This document shows, in pieces, positions 817 to 51,723 of a DNA stretch of 57,449 nucleotides (position 1 is its first letter; each line of letters opens with the position of its first letter). The position numbers were made by a program, and so were the translations under genes. The stretch is from Treponema sp. (GTDB taxonomy: Bacteria > Spirochaetota > Spirochaetia > Treponematales > Breznakiellaceae). The notes under the pieces were generated by a model that saw nothing but the letters and a program-made list of their open reading frames with translations, was not told the origin of the DNA and ran no database searches. Location: the NCBI GenBank assembly GCA_031259215.1, contig JAIRLU010000125.1, forward strand, positions 1-57,449, given 5' to 3'.

Positions 817-1017
817 CATATGGAAGGATATACGGCCTCTGAAATGGCTGAAATACTTAATTTGCCCCTTAAAACGGTAAAATTACGATTGTTCCGTAAA
901 GGCTTAAAACCAAAAACTCATGAATCGTTGTATGATAAATCCGCACTAGACACAATTCGCGAAGCCCCAATGGGCCGCCCGCCTAAAGCGAAGCAACCGG
1001 AACCCAAAAAATCCTAA
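817..1017 (+). CDS. Small helix-turn-helix DNA-binding protein (sigma-70 region-4-like HTH) with a basic tail.
   Basis: Inner Met of ORF 715..1017. The sequence GYTASEMAEILNLPLKTVKLRLFRKG resembles region-4 / excisionase-type HTH motifs. The C-terminal PMGRPPKAKQPEPKKS is basic. Confidence 0.4.
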   Translation, partial: HMEGYTASEMAEILNLPLKTVKLRLFRKGLKPKTHESLYDKSALDTIREAPMGRPPKAKQPEPKKS

Positions 1018-1077
1018 AAAACAGCCCCTCAAAAAATTTGAAATGTTTTTGAAAAATTGTTTGAATATACAATATAA

Positions 1078-1275
1078 ATGTTGTATATTGGAAGCATCAC
1101 GGCGAAGGAGATTATGGATACCCTCAAAGCCAACGGCTGGACCCTTGACCGTGTCAAAGATTCCCATTATGTGTTTGTCAAATCCGGTTGCCGCCCGGTT
1201 TCGGTTCCCTTTCACGGAAACAGGGACATCGGAAACTTCCCTGCCAGAATTTTGAAAGAAGCCGGTATTACATAA
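1078..1275 (+). CDS. hicA: HicA-family toxin (mRNA interferase) of a type II TA system.
   Basis: 65 aa. Motifs are KEIMDTLKANGWTLDRVKDSHYVFVK...VPFHGNRDIGNFPARILKEAGI, the YcfA/HicA pattern including the catalytic His. The gene lies 12 nt upstream of hicB. Confidence 0.85.
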   Translation: MLYIGSITAKEIMDTLKANGWTLDRVKDSHYVFVKSGCRPVSVPFHGNRDIGNFPARILKEAGIT

Positions 1276-1287
1276 GAGGAGGCCTCT

Positions 1288-1689
1288 GTGGTTTATAACT
1301 GCGTTATCGAAAAGGAAGGAGATGAGTACATTGTCCAGTTTCCGGATATGCCTAACATTGTTACCTGTGGATTTACCCAGGAGGAAGCTCTGGCCATGGC
1401 GAAAGAAGCTCTTGACAGCTGCCTTGAAGCCGATATTTCCCAGGGTGGTCTCATCCCACCCCCGGCTTTTACAGAGGGATACCCTATAACTGTTGCAAGC
1501 CATATTGCTTTGTCCCTCAGGCTCCGTGAACTGCGGGGCGAACAAAGCCAAACCGATATTGCCCGCAAATTGGGACTTTCCTATCAGGCCTACCAGCGTC
1601 TTGAGAATCCCCGAAAGGCAAACCCCACGGTCAAGACCCTTGAGCGAATCGCCCATGTCTATGGCCGGGAATTGAGTATCTCTATCTAA
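1288..1689 (+). CDS. hicB: HicB-family antitoxin with a C-terminal XRE-type HTH.
   Basis: GTG start preceded by AGAGGAGG. The N-terminal YNCVIEKEGDEYIVQFPDMPNIVTCGFTQEEALAMAKEAL matches the HicB fold pattern. The C-terminal LRELRGEQSQTDIARKLGLSYQAYQRLENP is an XRE-type HTH. Confidence 0.85.
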   Translation: MVYNCVIEKEGDEYIVQFPDMPNIVTCGFTQEEALAMAKEALDSCLEADISQGGLIPPPAFTEGYPITVASHIALSLRLRELRGEQSQTDIARKLGLSYQAYQRLENPRKANPTVKTLERIAHVYGRELSISI

Positions 1690-1776
1690 AGCCTGGATCG
1701 TTCCTGCTCTTGAAGCCATCTGTAAAGGTCGTCTCAAGCAGGAATAGCTCATGCTGTGTCCCCACTTTCCTTGGAT

Positions 1777-2990
1777 TTAATCTTGCCGATTCTCATGTCG
1801 GTAATCATAGCTTTGACCTTGTAATAATCTGCTCCTACCTCTGTCCCGAATCGTTTTGTCGGTGGCATACAGATAACACTTCGTTGTCTTGAGATCCGAA
1901 TGTCTAAGGATATCCTGGATATACCGGAGCGAGACCCCGTGCTCTTCCAGAATCAATGCCAGCGAGCGTCGGCTGCTATGTGGCACAATCTGCCGGCCTT
2001 TCAGCTCTATCCCCGCCCGGATAAGCCACTTTTTGAACCGTCCCTTGATCCAGGAAGGACCAGGAGTAGTCCCATCCTTGAACGAGAACACGAACTCGTG
2101 CTGACCGTGCTCATTCCAGAGGTTTTTGATCGCCTCCTGCAGCACTTTATCAAACGGAGCAACCCGTTCCCGCTTTCCCTTCGGTGAACCAAGTACCCGG
2201 TTTCTGCGATCAAAATTCTGCCATGCCCGGCATACGATAATTTTCGGTGTACACCAATCCAGTCGCCGCAGTCCAGCAAGGAACATTGCCCCGCAGACAG
2301 CTATGTCCATGGTATCACATAACACTCCCGGGGAAAACAGCTTGATGACTTCGACTTCCAGTAAAGTGTCTCGATCCTGGTGGTGGATGTTTTTGGGCGG
2401 ATCAATACTTTGGAAAGGGTTATACCAAAACGGACGTTCCCGAACGTAGACCTTGAACGCCTTGCGGACGAACTACATACCCTTATCAAAAATATCCGTA
2501 CCAGTCATTTTTTGGCTTTGGCCTTTAACCGGCTTCCCTGTAATTCCCGCATACCCATCCGATTTATAAATTGCAATACGTCGGTAACTTCTACCTAAGC
2601 CATCATCAGATCCATGAAGGGATGTCCTTGATATGGGTGTCGAGCAAGCTTTTATACCGGTCCACAGACTGCACGGAATAGGGCCGGTTTTTGGCAATAT
2701 TCAGCGCCGCTTTCGGACTTTCGATGATGGATGTGAACCAACGAAACCATTCGCCAACCAAAACATTTCCCTTGGTGAAGGCTGTCTGGCAGTCAGAGTT
2801 CTTGAGAAAGGCAATGAGCGCCAGCTTCAGCCGCAGCTCTGGTCCGTGGATTATCAGCTCCACCGAAAAATTCTGGAAGCTCTTGCGCTGCCATTCCCGA
2901 CAGACCCGAACAGGAAGCCCAGACCGTGGATTGATGGTAAGAAGGAAGGTTTTCGATCCCTTCCGCTGCTGGATTACATAAAGTTTCTGA
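1777..2990 (-). pseudogene. Tyrosine recombinase (phage-type integrase) pseudogene. The catalytic domain is readable and the N-terminal half is broken.
   Basis: The C-terminal frame (1777..~2470) carries GLRRLDW, HSSRRS and ILRHSDLKTTKCYLYAT (R..HxxR..H..Y). An in-frame TAG lies at 2473..2475. The N-terminal SAM-like part (YSVQSVDRYKSLLDTHIKD, ORF 2606..2863, open upstream to ~2990) is in another frame. Confidence 0.75.
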
Positions 2991-3114
2991 GGGCGTGACG
3001 TTTTTTTCTCCTAAAAGAGAAAAATACCTGCACAATAAGTACACGGTTTCACGCCTTTCAAGTATCAACAAAAATCTTATATCTATAATTCCTTATATTA
3101 TAAAGAATTATGTA

Positions 3115-3188
3115 TGGGCCTTCCTGGACTTGAACCAGGGACCTACGGATTATGAGTCCGCAGCTCTAACCAACTGAGCTAAAGGCCC
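3115..3188 (-). tRNA. tRNA with anticodon CAT: elongator Met or lysidine-modified Ile2, not distinguishable by eye.
   Basis: The reverse complement folds as a 74-nt cloverleaf: GGGCCTT TA GCTC AGTTGGTTA GAGC T GCGGA CTCATAA TCCGT AGGTC CCTGG TTCAAGT CCAGG AAGGCCC A. No CCA is encoded. Confidence 0.9.
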
Positions 3189-3480
3189 CCATACAGAGAA
3201 TTAAAATATACTTCATTATATATAAAAAAGTCAAGCCCCCGCGTTGCACTATCAACGACCAATAGAAATGTTACATCAAGCGGCGGTGGTCCTCGGCTGT
3301 TTGACCCCCTGCTTTGGCAGTATCTCCTTGATTTTGAGCGGCTTCCTTTTGCTTGCGCCGATTCCAAACGATAAAGAGTTCCAGCCCTGTTCCGTCCGAT
3401 ACACCCTATCCCTAAGTAAGGGGGATTGAAAAAGCAGGTTCTCCCGGTATTCATTCGACCACGCCATCTGTTTCCTCTGC

Positions 3481-3562
3481 CGCAGGATAAACGCATAGCA
3501 ATTCCTGTTTGTTAATTCGTTATACAGTAAAGAATTAGCAAATCCTATGCGTTTATCCTGCG
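3481..3562. repeat. Perfect 18-bp inverted repeat with a 46-nt spacer, located upstream of clpS.
   Basis: CGCAGGATAAACGCATAG (3481..3498) is the exact reverse complement of CTATGCGTTTATCCTGCG (3545..3562). Confidence 0.9.
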
Positions 3563-3609
3563 TTGATGTTACTATTGTGTTTTTACCCGGTTTCGGGTAT
3601 GCTAGAATT

Positions 3610-3921
3610 ATGTCTTTACATACCAAGAATGGTACGTTATTTGCCACCAAAAAGGCGGAAAAATTCAAGGAACCAGAAGAATTCCGGGTGATATTGTGCA
3701 ATGATCATTATACCACTATGGATTTTGTGGTGGAAATTTTGATCGCCGTGTTCCATAAAGATCACCTTGAGGCTAATCGTATCATGTTGGAGGTACACCG
3801 AAAAGGACGAGGTGTGGTAGGACAATACCCCTGGGATATAGCCAAAACCAAGGCCCAACAGGTACATATCTTGGCCCAGCAGCATGAATTTCCTCTCCGA
3901 TGTCTTGTAGAACCCCTGTAA
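3610..3921 (+). CDS. clpS: ATP-dependent Clp protease adaptor ClpS.
   Basis: FRVILCNDHYTTMDFVVEILIAVFHKDHLEANRIMLEVHRKGRGVVGQYPWDIAKTKAQQV is the ClpS core. The start is placed at the inner Met (MSLHTKNG), because the longer ORF begins inside the 18-bp repeat arm. Confidence 0.85.
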   Translation: MSLHTKNGTLFATKKAEKFKEPEEFRVILCNDHYTTMDFVVEILIAVFHKDHLEANRIMLEVHRKGRGVVGQYPWDIAKTKAQQVHILAQQHEFPLRCLVEPL

Positions 3922-4098
3922 GGGAAAGACCGGTTCATATCTGAGGGTGCTATGATCCTATCAGTCTGTTGGGGTGTTTAAGTAAGCCCCGCTCCCCTGA
4001 GTGGTAGGAAGTATAAGTCAAGGTCTTGTACCGGTTGTATCTAGGTAGAAGGGGCATAGGGCCTCAGTGGACGTTAGCCTGCCTTCTTGGAGGTATTT

Positions 4099-4210
4099 GA
4101 CTTGTTCGATAACCTGGTTGGTTCTCGAACAAGTCTTGCAAAATGCTCCGCATTTTGCTGTTTTTTATCGGAATTTGTTCAAAAACTTCAGTTTTTGAAC
4201 AACTCTATTG
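4099..4210 (+). repeat. Composite three-hairpin repeat, copy A.
   Basis: Hairpin 1: 4099..4109 pairs with 4125..4135 (11 bp), loop TAACCTGGTTGGTTC. Hairpin 2: 4138..4146 pairs with 4150..4158 (9 bp), followed by TGTTTTTT. Hairpin 3: 4175..4186 pairs with 4191..4202 (12 bp). The copy ends in CTCTATTG. Confidence 0.9.
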
Positions 4211-4503
4211 TATGCCCTAGGGTTTTCGATTTCCCGATTTTAATTCGACCAAACAAAATTGGATAAAATTAAGGACATCCGTAACTATGTAACAGTTACT
4301 TGTTTATAATATCAGAACATAATCACCATGATATTGTATATTTTGATTGAACCCTCTTTAGATGTACTTGTATGGAATAAAGAATTTAGGAAATACAAAT
4401 TTACCATAAAACTCATAGTGTTTTATTAGATTTAGTATTATAATTTAATTAGTAGTATTTTTTAACGTAAAGAGCTGGTCCATGCTCTGAGTAGGGAGTA
4501 AAA

Positions 4504-7011
4504 ATGAAAATCAGCGGCCATGTACAGGCCATTATAAACGCCGCCTATCATGAGGCTAAAGTGCGTAATCATGAGTACCTGACGCCGGAACATATACTAT
4601 ATGCAGCATTAGCCTTTGATGAAGTCCAGGGTATCCTGTCCGCTTGTGGTGCCAATCTGGATATGCTTAAAGATGGTATGGAAAATTATTTTAAGCAGAA
4701 AGTCCCCAGTATCGGTGATACCGAGCCAACCCAAACCGTGGGATTTCAGAGTGTCATTGAACGAGCCGTGCTCCAAAGCCAGGCTTCTCAGAAACATATC
4801 TTAGATGTGGCAGATATTCTTGTATCCCTGTATGATGAAGAACAAAATTATTGCGCCTATTATTTACGTAAACTGGGGGTTAAACGCTTTGAACTCCTTA
4901 ATGTCCTTTCTCATGGATTCGATGGAGAGCGGCCTTTTCTCTTTAATAAAATGAACGGCAGTGGGCTACAAGAGAGAAAAGAGGATGCGCTTGATGAGGA
5001 AGGAACAGATCCGACTCAAAAAACCAAAGCGAATAAACGGAGTGCCCTAGAACGATATGCTACGGAACTTACTGCCCTGGCCAAGGAGCATAAGCTTGAA
5101 CCGGTTATAGGCAGAGAAATGGAGTTAGACCGGACCGTCCAAGTGCTTTGCAGGCGGCTTAAGAATAATCCCGTGCATGTAGGGGATTCAGGGGTGGGAA
5201 AAACCGCCATCACCGAAGGCCTTGCCCAGCGTATTGTCACGGGGAATGTACCGCCTACCCTCACGAATTTTTCTATCTTTTCCTTGGACATGGGCGCCCT
5301 GGTGGCCGGGACCAAATACCGGGGGGATTTCGAAGAACGGATCAAGCGGGTCATTGAGGAGATACTAAAAAAAGAACGGGCTATCCTTTTTATCGATGAA
5401 ATTCATACCCTCGTAGGGGCGGGGTCTGTTTCAGGAGGGGCTTTGGATGCGTCTAATCTCCTCAAACCAGCTCTTACCTCCGGGAAAATCCGCTGTATTG
5501 GTTCTACCACCCACGAAGAATACAGTAAATTTTTTGATAAGGATCGGGCCTTGTCACGGAGGTTTCAGAAGATCGATATCAATGAACCCAGTGAGCATGA
5601 TGCCATAGCTATCCTCCAGGGACTTAAATCAAAATACGAGGAGTACCATAAGGTTCGTTACAGTGATGAAGCGGTGGAAGGGGCGGTGCGGCTCTCTGCG
5701 CAGTTTATCACCGAACGGCGGCTGCCGGACAAAGCCATTGATGTGATCGATGAAGCCGGTGCCTTTGCCCGGATAGCGGCTTTTAAGCAGAGCGAACAAC
5801 AACGGTTGTTGTATAAAGAGGAGGTAGATCTAGGCAATAAAAATAGCTTATCAAAAAAATTCGCGTTTTTTTTTGATAAGCATGACAAGACAGAGAAAAT
5901 TGAGAAAATAGAAAAGCCCTTGTCTTCTGAAGCAGAGGCTGATAGTCTGGCGCAGGGGGTCTCAGTTCAAGAGGGAACGGTAGAAAGTATTGATATTGGG
6001 CTTCCTCTGATTGAATCGGTGGTTTCCCGGATAGCCCGGATACCGGAGCGGTCCGTAGGAGAAAATGAGAAGGATAAACTTCGCAATCTGGAAGAGCGGC
6101 TCAGAAGGCGGATCTTTGGTCAGGACGAGGCAATTACCATGGTGGTTAAGGCGGTGAAGCGGTCCCGGGCTGGTTTTAGAGCTGAGGGTAAACCCGTGGC
6201 GAATTTTCTTTTTGTAGGCCCTACGGGGGTGGGGAAAACTGAATTAGCCCGAAGCCTTGCCCAGGTGTTGGGGGTTTCCATGCATCGCTTTGATATGAGT
6301 GAATATCAGGAAAAGCATACCATTTCGAGGCTCATCGGTTCTCCTCCTGGTTATGTGGGGTATGAAGAAGGGGGTCTCTTGACCGATGCCATACGGAAGC
6401 AGCCTCATAGTGTGGTCCTTTTAGATGAAATAGAAAAAGCCAACCCGGATATTTATAACATCCTCCTGCAGATCATGGACTATGCCACCCTTACAGACAA
6501 TAACGGCAGGAAAGCGGATTTTCGGAATGTGGTACTCATTATGACCAGCAACGCTGGCGCCCGGGATATTGGTAAGAACCTCATCGGATTTGGGGAGCGG
6601 AGCATTGATGCTTCAGTGGTGGATGGTGCAGTAGAGAAAACCTTTACTCCAGAATTTAGGAACCGTCTGGATGGAGTGGTACGATTCAGTCACCTTTCCC
6701 GGGAAATCATGACATCCATTGTACGCAAAGAATTGGAACTCTTCAAAACGCAATTGGCAGAGAAAAAGGTCACCGTGGAAGTTACCGATACCTGTGTAGA
6801 CCATCTTACCACCGATGGGTACAGCCGAGAATTCGGCGCTCGCAATGTAGGTCGGGTTATTGAGGATAAGATCAAATCCTTCTTTGTGGATGAAGTCCTT
6901 TTCGGCCGCCTTGCAGAAGGGGGAAGCGCCCGGGTTGACTGGACCGAAGGTGCATATCAGATTACCGTGCTTGAGGCTACCAAAACTTTGAAGGTCCTCA
7001 CCCATTCCTAA
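4504..7011 (+). CDS. clpA: ATP-dependent Clp protease ATP-binding subunit ClpA.
   Basis: 835 aa with a Clp_N repeat and two AAA+ modules (GDSGVGKTAI, GPTGVGKTELA). It follows clpS and precedes aat. RBS is GGGAG. Confidence 0.9.
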   Translation: MKISGHVQAIINAAYHEAKVRNHEYLTPEHILYAALAFDEVQGILSACGANLDMLKDGMENYFKQKVPSIGDTEPTQTVGFQSVIERAVLQSQASQKHILDVADILVSLYDEEQNYCAYYLRKLGVKRFELLNVLSHGFDGERPFLFNKMNGSGLQERKEDALDEEGTDPTQKTKANKRSALERYATELTALAKEHKLEPVIGREMELDRTVQVLCRRLKNNPVHVGDSGVGKTAITEGLAQRIVTGNVPPTLTNFSIFSLDMGALVAGTKYRGDFEERIKRVIEEILKKERAILFIDEIHTLVGAGSVSGGALDASNLLKPALTSGKIRCIGSTTHEEYSKFFDKDRALSRRFQKIDINEPSEHDAIAILQGLKSKYEEYHKVRYSDEAVEGAVRLSAQFITERRLPDKAIDVIDEAGAFARIAAFKQSEQQRLLYKEEVDLGNKNSLSKKFAFFFDKHDKTEKIEKIEKPLSSEAEADSLAQGVSVQEGTVESIDIGLPLIESVVSRIARIPERSVGENEKDKLRNLEERLRRRIFGQDEAITMVVKAVKRSRAGFRAEGKPVANFLFVGPTGVGKTELARSLAQVLGVSMHRFDMSEYQEKHTISRLIGSPPGYVGYEEGGLLTDAIRKQPHSVVLLDEIEKANPDIYNILLQIMDYATLTDNNGRKADFRNVVLIMTSNAGARDIGKNLIGFGERSIDASVVDGAVEKTFTPEFRNRLDGVVRFSHLSREIMTSIVRKELELFKTQLAEKKVTVEVTDTCVDHLTTDGYSREFGARNVGRVIEDKIKSFFVDEVLFGRLAEGGSARVDWTEGAYQITVLEATKTLKVLTHS

Positions 7012-7964: not shown

Positions 7965-8098
7965 GTATAGAGGTTTTTCCAAAATTAAAGGTTTTGGAAA
8001 GGTTACGCTGGATTTATGGGAAGAAACGGGCTGCAGCCCGCTTTTTCAAGAGCCTTTTCTATTGGACCAAAAGTCCGCACTAACCGAGTTTGGGGAAA
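7965..8098 (-). repeat. Composite three-hairpin repeat, copy D (reverse orientation, more degenerate).
   Basis: The reverse complement shows the loop motif AACTCGGTTAGTG and a central CGGGC-TGCA-GCCCG hairpin followed by TTTCTT. Hairpin 3 is TTTCCAAAA/TTTTGGAAA. The copy ends in CCTCTATAC. Confidence 0.6.
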
Positions 8099-8200
8099 TG
8101 TTCTCTATAAACCCTATTTTTGCTATTAGCACTGAGCTACACAAGCATCAGGTGATGTTTGAGATTCCCCTAGTTTTAGAAAAGATCTTTCGAGGTGGAC

Positions 8201-8428: not shown

Positions 8429-9214
8429 CTACAGTTCAAGATATGAATCCGCGTACAGGTTCTGATTCATGATGATATCCGCGGACTTGATCGTTTCCAT
8501 AAGCCGCAGGTCGCAGGGATTCACGATGGCAGAGGTAAAGCCGCATTTAATCGCCATAGCTAACATGACCGAATCCATTATGGGTCGGATATGCTTAGGC
8601 ATCATGTTAGAAACATTGGAAAGGCCTCCAGAGGAATTTAAATCCATATCCCTGAGCTGGCTGATGAAATCAAGGACTTCCACCTGTTTATCCTGCATTC
8701 CCTTAATAACCAGGAACAAGGGGTCAAACCAAATATCCTTGGGATCCATTCCCAAGTTCATACCATGTTCAAGCATCTCCTGACAGTAGGTCATGCGCTC
8801 TTCATTACTTGAAGGGACTCCCTGTTTTGCACAGAGGGCAATGACGATGGCATCATTGGCTGCCGCAAGGTCGATATAGGAGATACGATCCCCTGCATCT
8901 GCGGAATTGACAATCGGCTTACCCTTGGAACGGTTATATACCGAAATCCCCGCTTCAATAGCTTTTTTATTTGCCGTATCCAACGAAAGGGGAATATTGT
9001 CAAATTCACTTTGGATCAGTTGAACCGCCCACTTCATAAGTTCTACCCCGGTCTTCTCTGCCGGCCCGATATTGACATCAATATAGGTGGCCCCCGCCTC
9101 AATCTGTTCCTTCGCCCGTTTCAGGATAGGCGCAGGATCGTGGGCCTCCATAGCAGCACGAATTACCGGCGAAATACAGTGAATTCGCTCACCAATAGTA
9201 ATAAATTTACCCAT
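8429..9214 (-). CDS. acsE: Methyltetrahydrofolate:corrinoid iron-sulfur protein methyltransferase (AcsE).
   Basis: Pterin-binding fold motifs (IGERIHCISP, YIDVNIGP, SLDT, NSA). It is the last gene of the acs operon. The start is placed at MGKFITIG, with GGAGG 8 nt upstream. Confidence 0.85.
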   Translation of the reverse strand: MGKFITIGERIHCISPVIRAAMEAHDPAPILKRAKEQIEAGATYIDVNIGPAEKTGVELMKWAVQLIQSEFDNIPLSLDTANKKAIEAGISVYNRSKGKPIVNSADAGDRISYIDLAAANDAIVIALCAKQGVPSSNEERMTYCQEMLEHGMNLGMDPKDIWFDPLFLVIKGMQDKQVEVLDFISQLRDMDLNSSGGLSNVSNMMPKHIRPIMDSVMLAMAIKCGFTSAIVNPCDLRLMETIKSADIIMNQNLYADSYLEL

Positions 9215-9303
9215 AGCTATAACTCCTCCATAAATATAATATAAAACCCTAGGAGGGGTTTGAAACTCGTACAAAACTCCGATGTTCCAACCCCCTAGAC
9301 TTA

Positions 9304-10638
9304 TTAAGAGACTTTAAGTTCCTTAAGGAATTTGACCGATGCCACCGCTTCATTCGGCCCCACGATGATCTTCCATCCAGGCAGACTCTCTTCCAATTCG
9401 CCTTTAAGCACCGCTACCTTACCGGGAATGATGAGGTTGCGACTCTTGAGCTTACCTTCAATCCCTGCTTCTTTGAAGAACCGGGCGATGGAACTCGCTG
9501 AAAGCTTACCCGCGGCCCAGGAGGTAAGTACAGAATACCCCCCTGCATCGGAAATAAGCAGATTTACCGGTACCCCGGAACGCTCCAACTCCCCGGAAAC
9601 CACAAAATAGGTGAGGGCGAAGTCCACCGTGGTAGCACACACTGCATTTTCGTCCGCGCCGTTTAAAGGATATATTCCCGGTTCAACTTTCATGGGCTTC
9701 TGGGGGTCAGTGAAGATATTCTGCCGCAAGCCATAAAGGGGCAGGGCCTGGGCATAACTCATACCGCTCATAATGATGATGGAACCGTATTTTAAGGTGA
9801 AAAGGGATGCAAGAGCGGCCTGCATAACACTGTCTCCCGGAGCCAACTTCGCGACATTGACGATAGAAGGATACCCAAAGACCCGATCTTGATCCTTGAG
9901 AGCCGCACGACGGATCTGGACTGCGTTGGCAAAGGCCTCTTTCACCGAAGAATACCCCACATCAATGATCAAATTCTTATTTCCCAGTCCTTCAATAGCC
10001 GCGACCGTATCGTAGATCCCGTCCAAACTTGTACCGCTAACCCCTAAGACGACACCAAATTCCGTAGCCAGGGCACTCATCTCCTTATAATTGGATTCAT
10101 TGGCCCCATTGAGAATAGGCTTGCCCGCCTTGGTGAGTTCCAAAGCCTCCCGGGCTACAGCCAGATCGGAAACTTCCAGAATCAGGGTACGTTCTACGGT
10201 GAGGGCTTTCTTAACCGCTTCGAGGAACTGGTCCTTATTCCCGGTGTATTCCACATTGACCAGTTCCACATACATGCGTTCTCCGATACGCACATAATCC
10301 ACGATCTTAAGTTCCGATAGGGATTGGTCTACACAGTCAGAACACAGGGTTACGCCATAAAGACTCTTGGAAACAAAGGTTTTCTCGTGCCTAAAGAGAA
10401 CCGTTTCTCCGCCTAGGGTGTATTCAGCATTACCTACACCAAATTTAACGGTCTTCATGGGCGGTGCAGTGGCTTCACCCAGTTTTGCCAATGCTTCCGG
10501 GGACATGTGGGTACATTTATCTAAGGGAATCGCACCTTGGGCGACCTTCATGGCAAAGGCCATACAGGTCGGGCTACCGCATTCTTTACAATTCGTTTTA
10601 GGGGTGAACTTAAATATATCAAGTCCTTTAAGTGCCAT
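9304..10638 (-). CDS. acsC: Corrinoid iron-sulfur protein, large subunit (AcsC).
   Basis: 444 aa. The N-terminal CKECGSPTCMAFAMKVAQG...DKC is the [4Fe-4S] motif typical of CFeSP gamma. It is adjacent to acsD and acsE. Confidence 0.85.
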   Translation of the reverse strand: MALKGLDIFKFTPKTNCKECGSPTCMAFAMKVAQGAIPLDKCTHMSPEALAKLGEATAPPMKTVKFGVGNAEYTLGGETVLFRHEKTFVSKSLYGVTLCSDCVDQSLSELKIVDYVRIGERMYVELVNVEYTGNKDQFLEAVKKALTVERTLILEVSDLAVAREALELTKAGKPILNGANESNYKEMSALATEFGVVLGVSGTSLDGIYDTVAAIEGLGNKNLIIDVGYSSVKEAFANAVQIRRAALKDQDRVFGYPSIVNVAKLAPGDSVMQAALASLFTLKYGSIIIMSGMSYAQALPLYGLRQNIFTDPQKPMKVEPGIYPLNGADENAVCATTVDFALTYFVVSGELERSGVPVNLLISDAGGYSVLTSWAAGKLSASSIARFFKEAGIEGKLKSRNLIIPGKVAVLKGELEESLPGWKIIVGPNEAVASVKFLKELKVS

Positions 10639-10666
10639 AGATTACTCTCCTTTCTCCATATCCAGT

Positions 10667-11611
10667 TTAGATGATACTGGCCACAAACTTCGAAATGGTA
10701 GCCACCGAAACAGGATGCCTCAAGATAACCGCATTCGAACCTGCGGCAATGTCCGCAGCCGCAGTAACCACTTCCATATCAATACCCCGCTGTTCTTGGG
10801 GTCCCCAACCGGCCGGAGCATCACTCTCGGTTTTCTGAGCTTCCCCAACTGCCCATGCCTGCTCTGAAACCGGCGTGATGATCGGAATCTGTAGCTTGAC
10901 ATCGTTTTGGGCAAGAGCCGCTGCCTTGACCCGATCCAGGGTAGAGGCGATATATTCGTATCCATACCCTGCCGCCGCAGATCCTACGTTCATAGTTACA
11001 TTTCCCAGATCAATACCAAGCTGGGAAATAACCACATTGAGTTGCTTAGCTAGATTGATATCCACCGCAGACTCCGCTCCGATTTTTTGTCCATAGGCCT
11101 GGACCGCTGCAACTGCTATAGCCTTGTGGTTTTCTTCCTTAGCGGAAAGTAAGAGCACGTTCTTCCCCTCCAAGGCCTCTGCGATCTTGGGGAAAAGCTT
11201 GCCATCTTTTTCCACATTCTTACTTCCTTGAATAACCAAGGGCAAAGTAACCTTTTCGGCAACTTCTTTACATAGGGTTACGCAATCTTCAATCGCTTTG
11301 TCCATACCGTTAGGGTCGGCACTTTCCAAGGACAACACCACAAAATCAGCCCCGGGCATCTCACAAGCCCGTTTTGCTACTTCGGGAATACTTTCCGCTC
11401 CCTTATAGAACTCGGCAATACCGGGTATGTCCCTGTTTGGACCCTGATCAGAGACTTCCACTCCCACTTTCGGTGGATTCTTGATAGCCTCATCAAAACT
11501 GTACAAGGGAAGTACTTTTTCACCGCCAAAGGTGACAGTCTTATCACCCGTACCTATCACTACCTCTTTGATGGGTGCCGTGAATTTTTGCGGAACACGT
11601 TTAAATGGCAT
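10667..11611 (-). CDS. acsD: Corrinoid iron-sulfur protein, small subunit (AcsD).
   Basis: 314 aa TIM-barrel-like protein, called from its size and from its position between acsB and acsC. Confidence 0.8.
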   Translation of the reverse strand: MPFKRVPQKFTAPIKEVVIGTGDKTVTFGGEKVLPLYSFDEAIKNPPKVGVEVSDQGPNRDIPGIAEFYKGAESIPEVAKRACEMPGADFVVLSLESADPNGMDKAIEDCVTLCKEVAEKVTLPLVIQGSKNVEKDGKLFPKIAEALEGKNVLLLSAKEENHKAIAVAAVQAYGQKIGAESAVDINLAKQLNVVISQLGIDLGNVTMNVGSAAAGYGYEYIASTLDRVKAAALAQNDVKLQIPIITPVSEQAWAVGEAQKTESDAPAGWGPQEQRGIDMEVVTAAADIAAGSNAVILRHPVSVATISKFVASII

Positions 11612-11807
11612 AACGGTTTCCTCCTTTAATAATTTAGTAAAACAATCAACTTATCCGGTATCGCCTAAGGGCTACCGGTAAAACACCTCTCTACGATACT
11701 TTATTACCTAATAAGGAGCCTTTTCAAAAATCAATGAGAGCAGACCTGTGGTCCATGAAAAAACTATGGAAAAATCACCAAAAACACTGATTTTTCCTTT
11801 ATATCTA

Positions 11808-11947
11808 AGCCAGTTTCAAAACTCGGTTAGTAGGGAAACGTTGTTTCCGATGAAACTGGCTTCCAAAAAAGCGGTCTAAAGCCTGCTTTTTCACTTACAT
11901 TTAAACTTACTGCTTCAAAACTTGGGATTTTGAAACAGCCTCTAAGG
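11808..11947 (+). repeat. Composite three-hairpin repeat, copy E, located inside the acsB-acsD spacer.
   Basis: Hairpin 1: AGCCAGTTTCA (11808..11818) pairs with TGAAACTGGCT (11851..11861), with loop motif AACTCGGTTAGTA and a nested GGAAA/TTTCC hairpin. The central hairpin is AAAAAAGCGG..CCTGCTTTTT. Hairpin 3 spans 11910..11938. A TCTAAG direct repeat occurs at both edges (11804..11809 and 11941..11946). Confidence 0.85.
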
Positions 11948-12096
11948 ACAAAGATAATACTACCTGTAACCTCCCATACTCCTCGGATAATGCTCTGTAG
12001 AGAGATATAACCTAAACTACATCTCTCTACATTACTGCTCTTTACAAACCAGGCTAGAAGTACATTGCCCGCAGGGATTATCCCTTGAAAACAGGC

Positions 12097-14226
12097 TTAC
12101 AACAGGGGCTCAAGGTTCAACACCGGATGCTGTTTTTCACTCAAGAAGGTAACCAGAGTTTCAGCATCCTCAGATACGGTTTCATCGGCGATCATGGAGG
12201 TATAATCCTCGATCCCATAGAGTTCTTTTGCCGTAGTATTGAGTTTGGTACTCACAAACTCCTTGAGCGCCTTAGGCATCCACACGATACGAGCAGGACC
12301 TCCTTCAGCTTTCATGAACTTCTTGGAAGAGATGAACTGCTTACCATGTCCCATGAAACCAGGGGTCTGCACCCCACCACCGGTCATGGAAGCCATCTCC
12401 GAGAAGGTCATCCCCAGAGGGGTCATCCCCGCATGCTCCCGGTTGACAATAACCACCCCATTGGTAGATGGCTCAATACCACAGATACACTCAAAACAAC
12501 CGCAACTGGTCATAGGATCCTGCAATATGGAATAGAGGGTAACCTGCTCCAGGGAGCCATGTGAAGCGCTCTTTACCACTTCATTGACATCTTCCCAGAT
12601 ACCCAGGTTGTCATCTACCACTCGTTGCTTTGTAACGACCTGACAAGGACCGTTCGGATCAAGCTCGTTGGTAGCCTTTGCATCAAGCCAAGATACAGCA
12701 CCACACAATCCCAGCCGTTCAGGGGTAACGATACAAACATGAGACGGAGAGAAGGACTGACAGAGGATACAGTCATAAAAGACCTCCACACTCTCGTCCG
12801 TCAATGACTTGAGCCGAGCATCCCGCACCTCATAGACCTTATTTACATCCGCCCGCAATCGTTTGAGATCTTCCGGTTTCGTGTAGATTTTAACCTGACA
12901 CTTATCCACCACTGCCTCGTAGTCACTCTTTACCTTAGCATAGAGCACTTCCCCAATATGTTTTGCCCTGAACCCAGCTTCAAAAGCAACCTTACTCACC
13001 CGGATACGGATAAGATCCCGTTGACCGGTGTGCATAACCCCTTCAATACAGTTGAGGAAGTTATGGAACTTCCGCTCAAACACCGGTTCAAAGTCGCTCT
13101 GCATATTTTTACCTGCTACTTCGACTATGTAGGCCAAAGCAAAACGACTACCTGCCGGGACACTGTCGATATCCGGACCGATAAGCTCAATGGAGTGATC
13201 CTCCACTTCATTAGGCTCCAACGTACGGACCCACTCGAAACAATCCAGCCGGGAACCGTCAATATCCACCTGCATATCGTTTCTACGGATGATCTCTCCC
13301 TCAAAGGCAGTAGAAAAAGCCACCGGAATATCGATCTTCGTAATCTTGAGCTTAATATCCCGGGCTTCCAAAGAGGTCTCAATAAAGTCCTTGGTGTCTT
13401 GCTGAATGATGAGGCTCTTGGGAACCGGCCACATATCCTTGGTATCGTTAGTAATGACCGGGAAGCCCATAGCAATGGCACCACCACCGCACCCAACCAC
13501 GATATCCGGTACCGGTGCAAAGGCATTCACAAAGGCCCGGATACGATGGAAGGTATAATGGTCGAACCCTTCCTGATCACCCGGTTGAACCGCACCAAAA
13601 ATCATAGCTGCCCGGTTTACCAGAGATATGATGTGAGCTACCGCCCAGATATCCGGTCCCACCGGGACAACCCGAACCGGGAACCCCATGTTCAGCTTCA
13701 TGCGCTTGGCCTGGTCAATGACACCGCCGATAAGAAAGACGAATATAGCCCGGGACTGATACCCTTTGATGAGTTCCGCCGCCTCTTCGTCCGAAGGAGC
13801 GGGGCCGATGATCACCACAAATCCAGGAATGTCGCCGGTAACCAAAGGAACCCCTAATTCACGGACCTCTGCATCGGACATGTGTCCCCAGTACTCATCT
13901 CCATAGGGCTTATCGCTGCGGGCGTATTTACACGCCTCAATGACTTCCGCAGCGAGGACGGTTCCAAACCCAGATTTGAAGACATCCCCCAAGCGCTGTT
14001 CATGAGGCATCCAGGCCTTTACTTCAGGAAAACAGGCCTTGAGTTCCCCCAGGGTAGTTACCTTCTTGGAAAGGTAGGTTAAATGGTTGGCGAGAAAATA
14101 CGCGGTGTTCGGCATGGTAATAGGGGCTGCCTCACCGAGCTCCTTCACGGTCTCGTTCAACGTCTTCTCAGCGATGGCATACATCTCGTCAACACCATCA
14201 AAAACTCTATTAAAAAGCAATTTCAT
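12097..14226 (-). CDS. acsB: CO-methylating acetyl-CoA synthase (ACS catalytic subunit, AcsB).
   Basis: 709 aa. A-cluster motifs are CILCQSFSPSHVCIVTPERLGLCGAVSWLDAKA and TSCGCFECI. Confidence 0.9.
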   Translation of the reverse strand: MKLLFNRVFDGVDEMYAIAEKTLNETVKELGEAAPITMPNTAYFLANHLTYLSKKVTTLGELKACFPEVKAWMPHEQRLGDVFKSGFGTVLAAEVIEACKYARSDKPYGDEYWGHMSDAEVRELGVPLVTGDIPGFVVIIGPAPSDEEAAELIKGYQSRAIFVFLIGGVIDQAKRMKLNMGFPVRVVPVGPDIWAVAHIISLVNRAAMIFGAVQPGDQEGFDHYTFHRIRAFVNAFAPVPDIVVGCGGGAIAMGFPVITNDTKDMWPVPKSLIIQQDTKDFIETSLEARDIKLKITKIDIPVAFSTAFEGEIIRRNDMQVDIDGSRLDCFEWVRTLEPNEVEDHSIELIGPDIDSVPAGSRFALAYIVEVAGKNMQSDFEPVFERKFHNFLNCIEGVMHTGQRDLIRIRVSKVAFEAGFRAKHIGEVLYAKVKSDYEAVVDKCQVKIYTKPEDLKRLRADVNKVYEVRDARLKSLTDESVEVFYDCILCQSFSPSHVCIVTPERLGLCGAVSWLDAKATNELDPNGPCQVVTKQRVVDDNLGIWEDVNEVVKSASHGSLEQVTLYSILQDPMTSCGCFECICGIEPSTNGVVIVNREHAGMTPLGMTFSEMASMTGGGVQTPGFMGHGKQFISSKKFMKAEGGPARIVWMPKALKEFVSTKLNTTAKELYGIEDYTSMIADETVSEDAETLVTFLSEKQHPVLNLEPLL

Positions 14227-14246
14227 TGAAAACTCTCCTATAGTAA

Positions 14247-15020
14247 TTATGTGGAAAAATCGATACGCTCTTTGATCCTCCGGATCTCCTGTCGGGCACC
14301 TTCACTGGTGTCGAAGGGCGAAACGCCTTTTCTATCGGCGCTGATCACATCATCGCTATAGCTGATAAAGCCAAAAAGATCCTCCGGGGGTATACTATTC
14401 TTGAGGAATTCCTCATCCTCTCTCCCGCGAACTTTGTTCGCGACTACGCTTACCTTTTTCACACCCAGATCCGCTGCAAGAGCTTTTACCTTGTGATAGG
14501 TCTGTATGCTTCTCGCTCCCGGTTCAATAACCGTAATGAAGCGATCCACCATACTAGCGGTACCCCGTCCAAGGTGCTCGAGCCCTGCCTCCATGTCCAT
14601 AATGACCACATCATCCCGCTGTACCACGAGATGAGAAATCACTCGCTTGAGTACCACATGCTCAGGGCACACGCAACCGCCGCCGCCGGTTTCCACGGTA
14701 CCCATAATAAGCAGTTTTACACCGTTCTTTTCTTTAGAAAACCGATCCGGTATATCACTGACATGGGGATTTATTTTAAAAAACTTACCAAAAGTATCAT
14801 TGGTAGACCCGGTTCGCTCAGCGATGAGTTCACTCATCTTAGAAACTGGGGTGATCTCCTCCACTTCTCCTTCGCTGAAGCCCAGGGCTAAACCGAGATT
14901 CGCGTCCGGGTCTACATCAACCGCAAGCACCGTCCGACCTTCCGTCGCATAGAGACGGGCAAGCACTGCGGCAAGGGTTGTTTTTCCTACCCCACCTTTT
15001 CCGGTGATTGCGATTTTCAT
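14247..15020 (-). CDS. cooC: CODH/ACS nickel-insertion ATPase (CooC/AcsF family).
   Basis: The deviant Walker A GKGGVGKTT, the CxC motif GGGCVCPEH, and the position between cooS and acsB. Confidence 0.85.
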   Translation of the reverse strand: MKIAITGKGGVGKTTLAAVLARLYATEGRTVLAVDVDPDANLGLALGFSEGEVEEITPVSKMSELIAERTGSTNDTFGKFFKINPHVSDIPDRFSKEKNGVKLLIMGTVETGGGGCVCPEHVVLKRVISHLVVQRDDVVIMDMEAGLEHLGRGTASMVDRFITVIEPGARSIQTYHKVKALAADLGVKKVSVVANKVRGREDEEFLKNSIPPEDLFGFISYSDDVISADRKGVSPFDTSEGARQEIRRIKERIDFST

Positions 15021-15022
15021 AC

Positions 15023-16918
15023 TTAGATACCCAACCCCGCACGCTTTGCCTCAAGGCCCTCAAGAATGCTTTTCACCAGTTCATGAGGATCCTTGTTGAT
15101 GATATATCCTGCACCGACGATGTTACGGGTTCCCTGGGTGATGAGTTCCATCATTTGGCTACTTCCTTTAACCTGAGGTTCGATACCCAAGTACACATCA
15201 ATTCCTGTAGACACCACGTAATTAGCTATGGAGACCGCTTTCTCACTCATCCATTCAGGAGCACATCCCACCACCGGTATCTCAGTGGTCTTCACGCCCC
15301 AGTCTTTGGCAATCCCCGTGGCAAGGAGCATCATCCGGCTTATGTCCACGCACGCACCCATGTGCAGAATCGGCGGTATATCAACCAATTCGCATACCCG
15401 CCGCAAGCCCGCTCCACACACATACTTGGCATCTTTATTAAGGAGTCCCGCTTTAGTAGCCAGCTGCGCCGCACAACCGGTAGCAACGATCAACACATCG
15501 TTCTGCAACAACTCCTTCATAATTTCAAAATGAGAGTAGTCCGGCCGTACCCGAGGGTTGTTACAACCCACGATGGCTACTGCACCCCGCAAAACCCCCG
15601 CCTTGATTGCATCAATGGCCGGCCTATACGACCCGATCTCGTCCACATGGCTATTAGTTACCCCGTCAAGGTGCTTGATGATCTGCTCGTTAGGGTAGCC
15701 CACCACCGCGGTCTGCTTGGTACCGGGGATAAAGACCTTTGACGTATCCCGGTTGGGATAATTATCAATCGCCATTTTGATGAGGTCCTTGGCCTGATCA
15801 AAGGCGGTTTCCGGTTTAAATTCCACATAAATAGAACCGGGAATCCGGGCAATCGGAGAACTGGTAACAAATTTGGTGTGGAAACACTCGCTTAAAGGAG
15901 CCAGGGCAGGGAATATACACTGCACATCCACGCACATCATCTCCACCGCACCGGTTAAGACCGCGTTTTCCTGTTGGAGGAAGTTTCCTGCCATACGGAC
16001 CCCGTGACGCATGGCCACTTCATTAGCGGTACAACAAAGACCAACGATGTTGATACCCTTGGCGCCTTTTGTTTTCGCATAATCCACCAGTTCTTTTATC
16101 TCTGCAGCGGTTACCACCATTTCAGAGAAAGCCGGATCATGACCATGCACCACAATGTTGACCATCTCTTTTTCAAGAACCCCTAAATTTCCTTCAGTAG
16201 TCCGTACCGTAGGAGTTCCAAAGAGGATATCCGTTATTTCCGTACCCAGCATCGAACCGCCCCAGCCATTGGAAAGACTGGTCCGTAACCCCTGTCTCAC
16301 TAAGGCTTCAGGGTCCGCACTGTTTCCCATGTGGGTCATGTGCAAAGTAGTGGCAATTTCCCGGTCAATAGCTCGAGGCTCAATGCCCTGTTCCCGCCAT
16401 ACCTGCTGCCGTTCTTCAGTAGCCCGCTTAATAAACCGCTGCGTCCCCGAAGGCTTGCCGAATTCCATAAGACCGATTTCAGCGACTTCATGGGCAATGT
16501 CATAAATATCCTTGCCCTCTGTTTCTACCCCATACTCCCGTGCTAACCGTATAAGCTTCTGGTCATCCCGCACCTGGTAATTCCCGCCTGCCTTTGTACC
16601 GTGCAGTATATGCAGAATCTCCCGGGCATGATCCGAGTGGGCTGACGTACCCGCCGCAATAGTACGGGCATAATTCCGTGCCGCAATTGCATGAGCGTCT
16701 GCCCCGCAAATCCCCCGAGAAGCCTTGGGAGTAATACGGCATGGACCCATCGAACAATTTTTGCAACAGATCCCATCTTCGCCAAATTTACAGTGGGGTG
16801 TCTGCTTTTTGTTACGATCCTCCCATGTTTCTGCGCAAACGGAACAGGCTATTTCCTTGAGTTTAGCGGTATCTGCCTCCATTTGCTCAATAGAGGTTAA
16901 ATCTTCCAGCGTTTTCAA
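15023..16918 (-). CDS. cooS: Anaerobic carbon-monoxide dehydrogenase catalytic subunit (CooS/AcsA).
   Basis: 631 aa. N-terminal Cys clusters are CKFGEDGICCKNCSMGPCRI. The TTG start has AGGAGAGGAGAA 8 nt upstream. Confidence 0.9.
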   Translation of the reverse strand: MKTLEDLTSIEQMEADTAKLKEIACSVCAETWEDRNKKQTPHCKFGEDGICCKNCSMGPCRITPKASRGICGADAHAIAARNYARTIAAGTSAHSDHAREILHILHGTKAGGNYQVRDDQKLIRLAREYGVETEGKDIYDIAHEVAEIGLMEFGKPSGTQRFIKRATEERQQVWREQGIEPRAIDREIATTLHMTHMGNSADPEALVRQGLRTSLSNGWGGSMLGTEITDILFGTPTVRTTEGNLGVLEKEMVNIVVHGHDPAFSEMVVTAAEIKELVDYAKTKGAKGINIVGLCCTANEVAMRHGVRMAGNFLQQENAVLTGAVEMMCVDVQCIFPALAPLSECFHTKFVTSSPIARIPGSIYVEFKPETAFDQAKDLIKMAIDNYPNRDTSKVFIPGTKQTAVVGYPNEQIIKHLDGVTNSHVDEIGSYRPAIDAIKAGVLRGAVAIVGCNNPRVRPDYSHFEIMKELLQNDVLIVATGCAAQLATKAGLLNKDAKYVCGAGLRRVCELVDIPPILHMGACVDISRMMLLATGIAKDWGVKTTEIPVVGCAPEWMSEKAVSIANYVVSTGIDVYLGIEPQVKGSSQMMELITQGTRNIVGAGYIINKDPHELVKSILEGLEAKRAGLGI

Positions 16919-17395
16919 AATTATGGTTCTCCTCTCCTATGTGTGCCTTCAGGCACCACGTCAATTTAAACGGCTAAAGAGTCAACGACCCATTCTCCGT
17001 AAACCTTTACGGCTTCAACCGTATTGTTAGTCCGCACGCCGGCGCTTACCTATTTTATACACCTCCCGCTAGATCTAGCACTCTTCAACAGGTCGTATAT
17101 GTTTTTATGTCTGCCCTCTCGTTAGGAGGAAACCCATCAAAAACAACATCCCACCCGCTGTCTTTTGTTATATTTTTGATATCACGCCGCCGCCCTATAA
17201 GGAGAGGCCGGAATCAGATCGCTTATCCATCCCGGCTTCATCCTCCCTCAGTCATTGTACATCAATGTCAACATATAAAATTATACTACTTTACCTTGTT
17301 TAAAACCACAAGGATCGGGGTTAAGCTTGTGTCATCCCCTTACTCCATCCTATATACCCCAATCTTCATACATTGACATTCCTACTACAAACGTA

Positions 17396-47034: not shown

Positions 47035-47082
47035 AGGTTCTCTTCATTACTCCCTCGTGTGCCCCGGGCTTTTGCTTCATTG

Positions 47083-47193
47083 GACTTGTTCGATAACCTG
47101 GTTGGTTATCTCACAAGTCTTGCAAAATGCTCCGCATTTTGCTGTTTTTATCGGAATTTGTTCAAAAACTGAAGTTTTTGAACAACTCTATTG
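47083..47193 (+). repeat. Composite three-hairpin repeat, copy B. It lies between mraY and ftsW and overlaps the mraY stop codon.
   Basis: Nearly identical to copy A. Hairpin 1 is partly degraded (7 bp plus 2 bp). The central hairpin GCAAAATGC-tcc-GCATTTTGC is followed by TGTTTTT. Hairpin 3 is 12 bp with loop TGAA, where copy A has TTCA. Confidence 0.9.
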
Positions 47194-51401: not shown

Positions 51402-51510
51402 TGAGGCTTTTTCAAAACCTAGGTTCATTTTGAAAAACCAGAGAATGATTTTTCCTTTACCCCTCAGGTTGGGCTTTCAAAATACAACCTTTTGAAAAAG
51501 CCTCAATTAT
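51402..51510 (+). repeat. Composite hairpin repeat, copy F. It is a divergent member and lacks a clear central hairpin.
   Basis: The terminal inverted repeat is perfect over 16 bp: TGAGGCTTTTTCAAAA (51402..51417) against TTTTGAAAAAGCCTCA (51490..51505). The hairpin-1 loop is CCTAGGTTCA. Hairpin 3 spans 51472..51502. Confidence 0.7.
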
Positions 51511-51590
51511 TACCTACGTATTATGCTTAATCTATATATTCATTCAGCCCAGGGACTCCGTCAAGGCCCTTATTAAAAAAATGGATATTG

Positions 51591-51723
51591 GACTTGTTCG
51601 AGAACCCGGTTGGTTCTCGAACAGGTCTCCAAAAAACGTGGATTTCTTAATAAAATCCACGTTTTTTATCGTTTTTTAAGCGGAACTTGTTCGGAAACTG
51701 AGGTTTCCGAACAACTCTATTAT
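51591..51723 (+). repeat. Composite three-hairpin repeat, copy C.
   Basis: Hairpin 1: 51591..51602 pairs with 51616..51627 (12 bp including one G-U), loop AACCCGGTTGGTT. The central hairpin is AAAAAACGTGGATTT / AAATCCACGTTTTTT (15 bp). Hairpin 3: 51687..51698 pairs with 51703..51714 (12 bp). Confidence 0.9.

Follow-up and report, generated by a model that had tools for sequence, protein, structure and literature searches.

Three-hairpin intergenic repeats of a termite-gut treponeme as probable copies of an abundant non-autonomous transposable element

The contig JAIRLU010000125.1 of Treponema sp. (assembly GCA_031259215.1; 57,449 nt, analysed over its full length and called the window below) carries six short repeats, named A to F, with a common plan of a left hairpin (hairpin 1), a terminator-like central hairpin and a right hairpin (hairpin 3). 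An earlier note, made from the letters of the window only, had listed these copies and left their nature between a mobile element resembling a MITE (miniature inverted-repeat transposable element), a structured RNA module and a substrate of a Y1 transposase. On reading the sequence again, all six are present where that note had placed them. We conclude, with a probability of about 0.88, that they are MITEs, that is, non-autonomous transposable elements, of about 100–135 bp, which are abundant in termite-gut treponemes. Target-site duplications, empty beside filled sites, high copy number and deletion or cargo derivatives all speak for the first of the three proposals. Duplications, empty sites, differences in presence between relatives and derivatives together define a MITE family that is active or was so recently. 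The repeats are a well-known kind of selfish DNA, not an RNA gene.

Insertion sites of the family and of the six window copies

Further copies in related genomes, which the earlier note had proposed to look for, are found in many assemblies. Genomes were scanned with a degenerate pattern (loop motif plus right end), one genome per species, which gave at least 91 stretches in about 45 assemblies, nearly all of them metagenome-assembled genomes (MAGs) of termite-gut Treponema/Spirochaetaceae. A metagenome scan with the left end of subfamily 2 as query gave at least 120 stretches; their contigs have JGI/Ga identifiers and are taken to be JGI termite-gut metagenomes. An nhmmer search of the genome-scan loci counts about 111 full copies plus truncated forms. 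Two subfamilies are distinguished by their ends. Subfamily 1 (A, B, C type) has RGACTTGTTC...GAACAACTCT, in short RGAC...CTCT, and subfamily 2 (D, E, F type) has GAGSYTGTTCC...GGAACAGCCTC, in short GAG...CTC. The linker is conserved within each subfamily. Copies are 100–136 nt long, with a mode of 119 for subfamily 2, and have no coding capacity, as no open reading frame (ORF) spans them.

The flanks of these copies carry the main evidence. Among the genome copies of subfamily 2, the flanking 4-mers are identical in 11/12 (1.5 expected; 0/2000 shuffles reach this value), and in the independent metagenome set of the same subfamily in 32 of the 42 (2.6 expected; no more than 9 in any of 5000 shuffles). 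For subfamily 1 the flanking 3-mers agree in 54/68 copies against 30 expected, which again none of 2000 shuffles reaches. The duplicated 3-mers of subfamily 1 are ATT, AAT, ACT, AGT or ATC. Those of subfamily 2 are variable 4-mers, among them AATT, AAAT, ACTT, TGTC and CTGT, and their consensus is close to A-N-W-T.

The same pattern is seen in the window. Copy A (4098..4206, + strand, subfamily 1) lies between clpS and clpA in the sense orientation, with ATT at 4095-4097 and 4207-4209. Its hairpin 1 occupies 4099-4135, the terminator-like hairpin 4138-4158 with a T-run to 4166, and hairpin 3 4175-4202. Copy B (47082..47189, +, subfamily 1) lies in the mraY-ftsW gap and runs antisense to the dcw operon, with the duplication ATT(G) at 47079-47082 and 47190-47193. 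Copy C (51590..51719, +, subfamily 1; central hairpin 51631-51667) is upstream of the ORF 51770-52522 and has ATT at 51587-51589 and 51720-51722. Copy D (7970..8105, − strand, subfamily 2 with GAG...CTC ends) is located between aat and acsE, after acsE, and TATA is duplicated at 8106-8109 and 7966-7969. Copy E (11810..11942, +, subfamily 2 with a degenerate left end) is found between acsB and acsD in the Wood-Ljungdahl cluster, with the duplication TAAG at 11806-11809 and 11943-11946. Copy F (51403..51504, +), an old and degenerate member of subfamily 2, lies upstream of rsmH, which is the gene downstream of both C and F. Its terminal inverted repeats match at 16/16 positions, as had been noted, and its flanks AACT/AATT at 3/4; it has neither the exact loop motif nor a good central hairpin. 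The short direct repeats seen earlier at the edges of the copies are thus real, as target-site duplications, with other extents than first given: ATT(G) rather than a TATTG-like sequence for A-C, and TAAG rather than TCTAAG for E, where the first two letters (TC) of the right-hand TCTAAG belong to the end of the element itself.

A repeat search of the window groups A, B and C as one clear subfamily. The motif AACTCGGTTAGT is common to D, E and A-C, and the pattern AACYYGGTTRGT matches the window 5 times where 0.06 matches would be expected. Built from all six copies, an nhmmer profile finds all of them again, F at E 1e-19, a circular result in that F is part of the build, and detects no seventh copy in the window.

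A comparison with relatives gives both empty and filled sites, as the earlier note had suggested checking. In three relatives, whose MraY is 96%, 94% and 87% identical to that of the window, the mraY-ftsW gap is 33-67 nt and ATTCAATGAAG is uninterrupted. The window reads ...ATTCAAT / AGAGTTGTTC...GAACAAGTC / CAATGAAG... between the two genes. The site of copy B is empty in L092, L093 and L094 (loci are given by L numbers). Copies A and D are absent from the close relative L097. At the place of copy C, the corresponding spacer of L092 holds two copies. Copy E occurs in L097; L099 and L100 keep a short remnant of it, and L098 lacks it. The closest relatives lack A, B and D and share C, E and F with the window. 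In the opposite direction, L031 is filled, with AATG on both sides, within a gene of which the window has an intact version. Insertion by a staggered cut with duplication of the target has occurred.

All six copies are intergenic, as had been stated, with one refinement: copy B abuts mraY and its final bases form the mraY stop codon. The element-final CTA provides the stop TAG, while the old stop TGA is now beyond the element, so that MraY is unchanged. With a Treponema MAG protein the window MraY shares 96% identity, and with its counterparts in Breznakiella, Leadbettera and T. primitia 80-83%. A Wood-Ljungdahl cluster at 8429-18250 (acsE, acsC, acsD, acsB, cooC, cooS, folD) identifies the source as a homoacetogenic, uncultured termite-gut treponeme; copies D and E are inside it or beside it.

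Beyond the termite-gut MAGs, a diverged copy with ATT flanks is found on a Treponema saccharophilum plasmid, in the first 50 kb of which there is no annotated transposase. No copies were found in the viral contigs and phage genomes searched. Two element-bearing contigs, L013 and L039, are binned as Bacteroidales (Proteiniphilum, Tannerellaceae). For L013 mis-binning seems likelier than transfer, because its ORFs cluster with the Spirochaetaceae locus L032. No description of this repeat family turned up in the literature when searched by topic or by sequence string. A 2024 survey (PMC11602168) puts the average for Spirochaetes, Treponema among them, at about 145 conserved MITEs per genome, so the MITE richness of the group is known in bulk. 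The family is a major, apparently undescribed repeat of termite-gut treponemes. Many matches among the stretches listed sit at contig ends, and the family breaks metagenome assemblies in this way. It also marks very recent genome change between near-identical strains, which makes its copies useful strain markers.

Hairpin ends, central terminator and derivatives

RNA folding predicts three hairpins in A-C, with z values of -6.7 to -8.9, and weaker ones in D and E, with z values of -2.6 to -2.8, while copy F folds as one long hairpin. Each end module is formed by the outer terminal inverted repeat and an internal inverted copy of the same sequence. The space between the two modules is taken up by the central hairpin, which is like a Rho-independent terminator, and a short linker. 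For hairpin 1 the earlier note had given a stem of 11-12 bp and a conserved loop motif. The motif is shared, and the stem in A-C is about 16 bp. The conserved bases described as a loop are in A-C mostly paired (AACC/GGTT), leaving a loop of 5 nt. AACY/RGTT is the conserved, covarying top of the stem, closing a near-invariant CGGTT pentaloop. CGGTT is the loop in most family members, and A and B have a CTGGT-type loop. In 86/98 copies the hairpin-1 loop is CGGTT and it is never inverted; its closing pair alternates between C:G and T:A. In contrast, the hairpin-3 loop flips between TGAA and TTCA, a flip already seen between copies A and B and found again here by reading the sequence. The CGGTT loop is the best-conserved feature across subfamilies whose stems differ, and may be a cis-acting site needed for propagation.

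The stems change between copies and remain paired, as proposed from A and C, where two compensated pairs (TTGTTCAAAAAC/GTTTTTGAACAA versus TTGTTCGGAAAC/GTTTCCGAACAA) are read from the sequence. In hairpin 1, 91.8% of alignment cells pair over 55 distinct sequences, compared with 23-44% in slid controls, and 11/16 pairs are changed on both sides (102 cells), which 0/500 shuffles reach. For hairpin 3 of subfamily 1, 96.5% of cells pair and 4/12 pairs are changed on both sides. The mismatches of hairpin 1 are almost evenly divided between G:T (30) and A:C (29), and this equality indicates that pairing is not selected on one transcribed strand. A DNA palindrome, which a dimer could bind in double-stranded form or which could fold on one strand or the other, fits hairpin 1 better than a single transcribed RNA. 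The arms would stay complementary if only copies with intact palindromic ends were copied further.

Rfam searches covered the window and three loci, with both gathering and E-value cut-offs. In the whole window the only match is tRNA-Met. Copy A has VrrA as its best sub-threshold match, with 21 bits (E 0.36) where the gathering score is 50, and in L031, L073 and L006 nothing matches over the elements except for a chance hairpin match.

The central hairpins are unrelated in sequence between the window copies, as stated before, and in the family they fall into unrelated types. Those of A, B and C pass an intrinsic-terminator scan on the + strand, in agreement with their earlier description as terminator-like. 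The central hairpin of D passes on the + strand only, antisense to D, and the T-run on its own strand is weak. Across the family the central hairpin is more stable than -8 kcal/mol in 94/99 copies, and at least 4 T are found in the 8 nt after the stem in 67/99. A promoter is not consistently carried. The orientation of copies relative to their neighbours was counted for 68 copies with both neighbours called: both flanking genes are antisense to the element in 23 and sense in 17, and the flanking genes are divergent in 17 and convergent in 11. The terminator strand faces the upstream gene in 28/68, which is no bias, and sites inside tandem gene pairs are not avoided among these 68 copies. Because orientation is unbiased, the terminator looks like baggage and not like the cause of copy persistence. 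Copies are almost always intergenic; three lie inside ORFs, and those ORFs are doubtful by eye.

Copies in essential or signature operons, namely clpS-clpA, the dcw cluster of cell-division genes and the acetogens' acetyl-CoA synthase cluster, bring in an intrinsic terminator and may thereby alter operon expression. Effects on the host would be by-products of transposition: insertion into spacers, including those within operons, import of a terminator and of stable hairpins, and rebuilding of stop codons as at mraY.

Shorter and longer relatives of the full copy also occur. Some forms consist of hairpin 1 and the terminator only. Solo hairpin-1 and solo hairpin-3 forms measure about 40-45 nt, and many of these solos have duplications of their own. 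Many solo hairpins end in a hairpin-3-type 3' arm (GCCTC), which fits slippage deletion between directly repeated 3' arms and not an independent origin. The solo palindromes may thus be simple slippage deletions of full copies. At the other extreme, a 1,172-bp copy in L219 (3283-4454) has both element ends, a 4-bp duplication AAAT and two passenger genes, one for a helix-turn-helix regulator of 96 aa (XRE-type by eye) and one for a lipoprotein of 191 aa; it encodes no transposase.

Several observations were made beside these. In several copies of the MAG Iy174_bin21 (L005 230-399, L005 4855-4979, L017 3121-3264 and L045 5418-5552), the 3' arm of hairpin 1 contains one and the same nested sequence of about 50 nt, CTGCTAAGCTGCGGTTAGCGCTGGTTAAAGTCCAACGGGCTTTAACCGCC, an insertion that may be another tiny hairpin element. 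In L067, a set resembling a diversity-generating retroelement is recognised by eye at 2886-4596, with a possible target of FGE-sulfatase/C-type-lectin type, an HRDC-like accessory protein and a reverse-transcriptase-like ORF, the last of which is cut off by a partial element (hairpin 1 plus terminator) at 4552-4629. Around copy A, the clpS-clpA spacer (3916-4098 and 4211-4345) is about 425 nt longer than in L097, of which copy A makes up only about 110 nt. The extra upstream piece folds strongly, at -58.9 kcal/mol; Rfam gives no match to it, and neither the window nor L001-L100 has a further copy. The window also has, at 946-3188, a phage-integrase-family ORF (1777-2325, 182 aa, short, with a Pfam match over the C-terminal part of the domain only), which together with an unassigned 268-aa ORF adjoins the tRNA-Met gene (3115-3188, −). 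This region is possibly the remnant of an integrated element.

Mobilising enzyme and alternative explanations

As no copy encodes an enzyme, mobilisation probably acts in trans: a transposase supplied from elsewhere would recognise the element ends and make a staggered cut of 3-4 bp at an A/T-rich site (A-N-W-T), leaving the duplication. The most likely candidate is an IS5-type DDE transposase, to which the 3-4-bp duplication and the GAG/GGA termini point. The IS1031/IS5 groups make duplications of 3-4 bp, according to the ISfinder family tables. The IS903 end GGCTTTGTTGAA, an end of the IS5 family, matches GGACTTGTTCGA and GAGCTTGTTCCA at 7-8/12 bases, a loose likeness that could be chance. 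The canonical Harbinger duplication is 3 bp, and Harbinger is related to IS5 (PMC12730594).

Several points weigh against an ordinary MITE mobilised in this manner. About 1.3 Mb of element-bearing DNA yielded neither a transposase nor an autonomous element whose ends match, which is why the enzyme family is a guess. The apparent duplication length differs between the subfamilies, 3 bp in subfamily 1 versus 4 bp in subfamily 2. The solo palindromes of about 45 nt leave only 5 nt between their ends, which is awkward for a classical synaptic complex. In addition, the most conserved feature is a hairpin loop, for which an ordinary transposase binding double-stranded ends has no obvious need.

The search for the enzyme took several forms. 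Inverted pairs of ends 0.3-5 kb apart, with and without a check for duplications, are only pairs of separate MITEs and the one cargo copy. All-against-all clustering of ORFs for multi-copy proteins gave only ABC transporters, sensor proteins and similar. The truncated copies inspected adjoin, among others, the reverse-transcriptase-like ORF in L067 (by eye) and a lipoprotein-like ORF in L045, and no transposase. A small ORF in L045 resembling the N-terminus of IS630 has no Pfam support and was rejected, as was an apparent long element at L053 2558-4410, which encodes ordinary proteins. In the same locus, a perfect 35-nt inverted repeat pair 733 nt apart (4625-5357) is unrelated to the family and may be a small mobile element.

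Of the alternatives, the one that survives best concerns how the unit is built. The three-hairpin unit would be a composite, in which two independently mobile hairpins of about 45 nt co-mobilise a captured host terminator in the style of a composite transposon. The solo elements of both types with their own duplications are in line with this, and so are the unrelated central hairpins of otherwise similar copies, the 1 kb of passenger DNA that the same ends can carry and the resemblance of hairpin-3 arms to the hairpin-1 arms of the same copy. However, the GCCTC 3' arm of many solos fits slippage deletion, and the linker is conserved within subfamilies. We consider a composite origin possible and lean against it; it would refine the MITE explanation and offers no alternative to mobility.

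A further idea is that the mobile unit is the folded hairpin itself, moved by a system that recognises hairpins or cruciforms and is possibly derived from Y1 enzymes, yet makes target-site duplications unlike known Y1 systems. It is suggested by the never-flipped CGGTT loop on covarying stems, by the solos with their own 4-bp duplications, by the lack of a DDE transposase nearby and by a 20-nt identity of the element's right module to the leader of RayT-like genes, a family without HUH histidines in the aligned members that is massively expanded in the same genomes. We give this idea little credence. With its hairpin ends, its invariant loop, its 45-nt solos and no transposase found, the family keeps a small chance of being mechanistically new.

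The RayT-like family is also the basis of the Y1 proposal of the earlier note. The window encodes at 55521-55994 (−) a 157-aa Y1_Tnp/RayT-like protein (31.8 bits) in a 707-bp unit (55405-56111) bounded by 15-nt inverted repeats, TCTAAACTTGACCCA and TGGGTCAAGTTTAGA. The family has at least 1288 members, and the source-named ones among the 120 matches listed are all from Treponema or Spirochaetaceae. In 13 aligned members, the tyrosine in GHIWGDRYGS is invariant, and no histidines are conserved in DDWLTFYIKP, where we place the HUH motif by our own reading. A PDB sequence search with the protein gave nothing significant. The inverted repeat that flanks the RayT-like genes consists of TGTGGGTCAAGTTTAG, a small hairpin and GGCGGGG, and is unlike the three-hairpin elements; the TGTGGGTCAAGTTTAG-type repeat is also present around homologues in L221-L223. 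Gene-less pairs of this flanking repeat were seen in L032, L063 and L065, which belong to one MAG.

According to the Y1 proposal, the elements are REP/REPIN-like or IS200/IS605-derived hairpins that a Y1 (HUH) transposase moves in single-stranded form, for which the RayT-like family, greatly expanded in these genomes, is the candidate. Each end is indeed a hairpin with covarying stems and a loop fixed in orientation. Moreover, 20 identical bases, TTAGCGGAATTTGTTCGGAA, with a similar hairpin, are shared between the linker and hairpin 3 of subfamily 1 and a segment just upstream of RayT-like genes (at L223 2918-2956 and at about 2925-2960 in L221; L017 1533-1661 is an example of the subfamily-1 copies compared). 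However, Y1 transposition is not known to make target duplications, whereas here the duplications are true and variable in sequence, with the bases of the empty site duplicated. The elements have clear terminal inverted repeats and no orientation bias (tandem contexts, 23 versus 17). The RayT-like genes are flanked by a different repeat, and an element interrupts the sole RayT-like gene present in the roughly 1.3 Mb of element-bearing DNA. The HUH histidines are not conserved in the aligned members. Duplications, inverted ends, the absence of orientation bias and the lack of linkage to RayT-like genes speak against a classical Y1 mechanism, which we consider very unlikely.

Least likely of all, and hardly to be believed, is that the copies are primarily regulatory modules or functional RNAs, whether small RNA genes or transportable cassettes for termination or messenger RNA stabilisation, kept by host selection with mobility secondary: the terminator-like hairpin of nearly all copies, the very stable folds with strongly covarying stems and the loop motif kept across subfamilies would suit them, but there is no Rfam match, copies sit in either orientation without a bias of the terminator strand toward the upstream gene, B lies antisense inside the dcw operon, G:T and A:C mismatches are equal in hairpin 1, no promoter is consistently carried, and copies differ in presence between near-identical genomes and decay to remnants, so that structured RNA, the remaining suggestion of the earlier note, finds no support as their primary identity.

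Comparison with known systems

The earlier note could place the repeats in none of REP/BIME, ERIC, Correia, BOX or RUP, a judgement that appears reasonable, and no description that would change it was found. The closest likeness in kind is to the Correia/NEMIS elements of Neisseria and the RUP elements of Streptococcus pneumoniae. Like them, the treponeme element is non-coding and about 100-150 bp in length, with terminal inverted repeats, target-site duplications, many intergenic copies, insertion polymorphism, stable hairpins and a possible effect on the transcription of neighbours. Correia and RUP elements duplicate TA and have long simple inverted repeats. The treponeme element, in contrast, duplicates 3-4 bp (A-N-W-T), often without TA (AATT, AAAT, ACTT, CTGT), has a hairpin at each end with a near-invariant CGGTT loop and a terminator in the middle, and belongs to another host clade. 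Sequence similarity to Correia or RUP was neither found nor expected.

SPRITE is likewise an interspersed repeat, of about 105 nt, that resembles an intrinsic terminator; compared by description, the treponeme element differs in its inverted-repeat hairpin ends, its demonstrated duplications and its empty sites. With the IS5 family and its MITEs, and with the eukaryotic PIF/Harbinger-Tourist elements, it shares short duplications, termini starting with GAG/GG and a TTGTT core. However, no IS5-type transposase with these ends was found in the element-bearing loci, and hairpin ends with a conserved loop are untypical of IS5.

REP/BIME/REPIN sequences and their RAYT genes are alike in being short intergenic hairpin repeats in inverted pairs, with RayT-like genes in the same genomes. 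REPs flank the RAYT gene and lack terminal inverted repeats and duplications, whereas the treponeme element duplicates its target and is unlinked to the RayT-like genes. Derivatives of IS200/IS605 (PATE-like) have no inverted repeats, make no duplication, insert at a fixed 5' target tetranucleotide and show strand bias; the treponeme element has inverted repeats, variable duplications and no orientation bias. The cargo copy at L219 3283-4454 is similar to mobile insertion cassettes (MICs) in its two ends, 4-bp duplication and two passengers without a transposase, but it is a single example and the typical copy in treponemes carries no genes.

The hairpin ends, the invariant loop, the 45-nt solos and the absent transposase make the family a reasonable system for studying how tiny palindromic elements are mobilised. 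The element works like bacterial MITEs but belongs to none of Correia, RUP, SPRITE, MIC, REP/RAYT, IS200/IS605 derivatives or the Rfam families.

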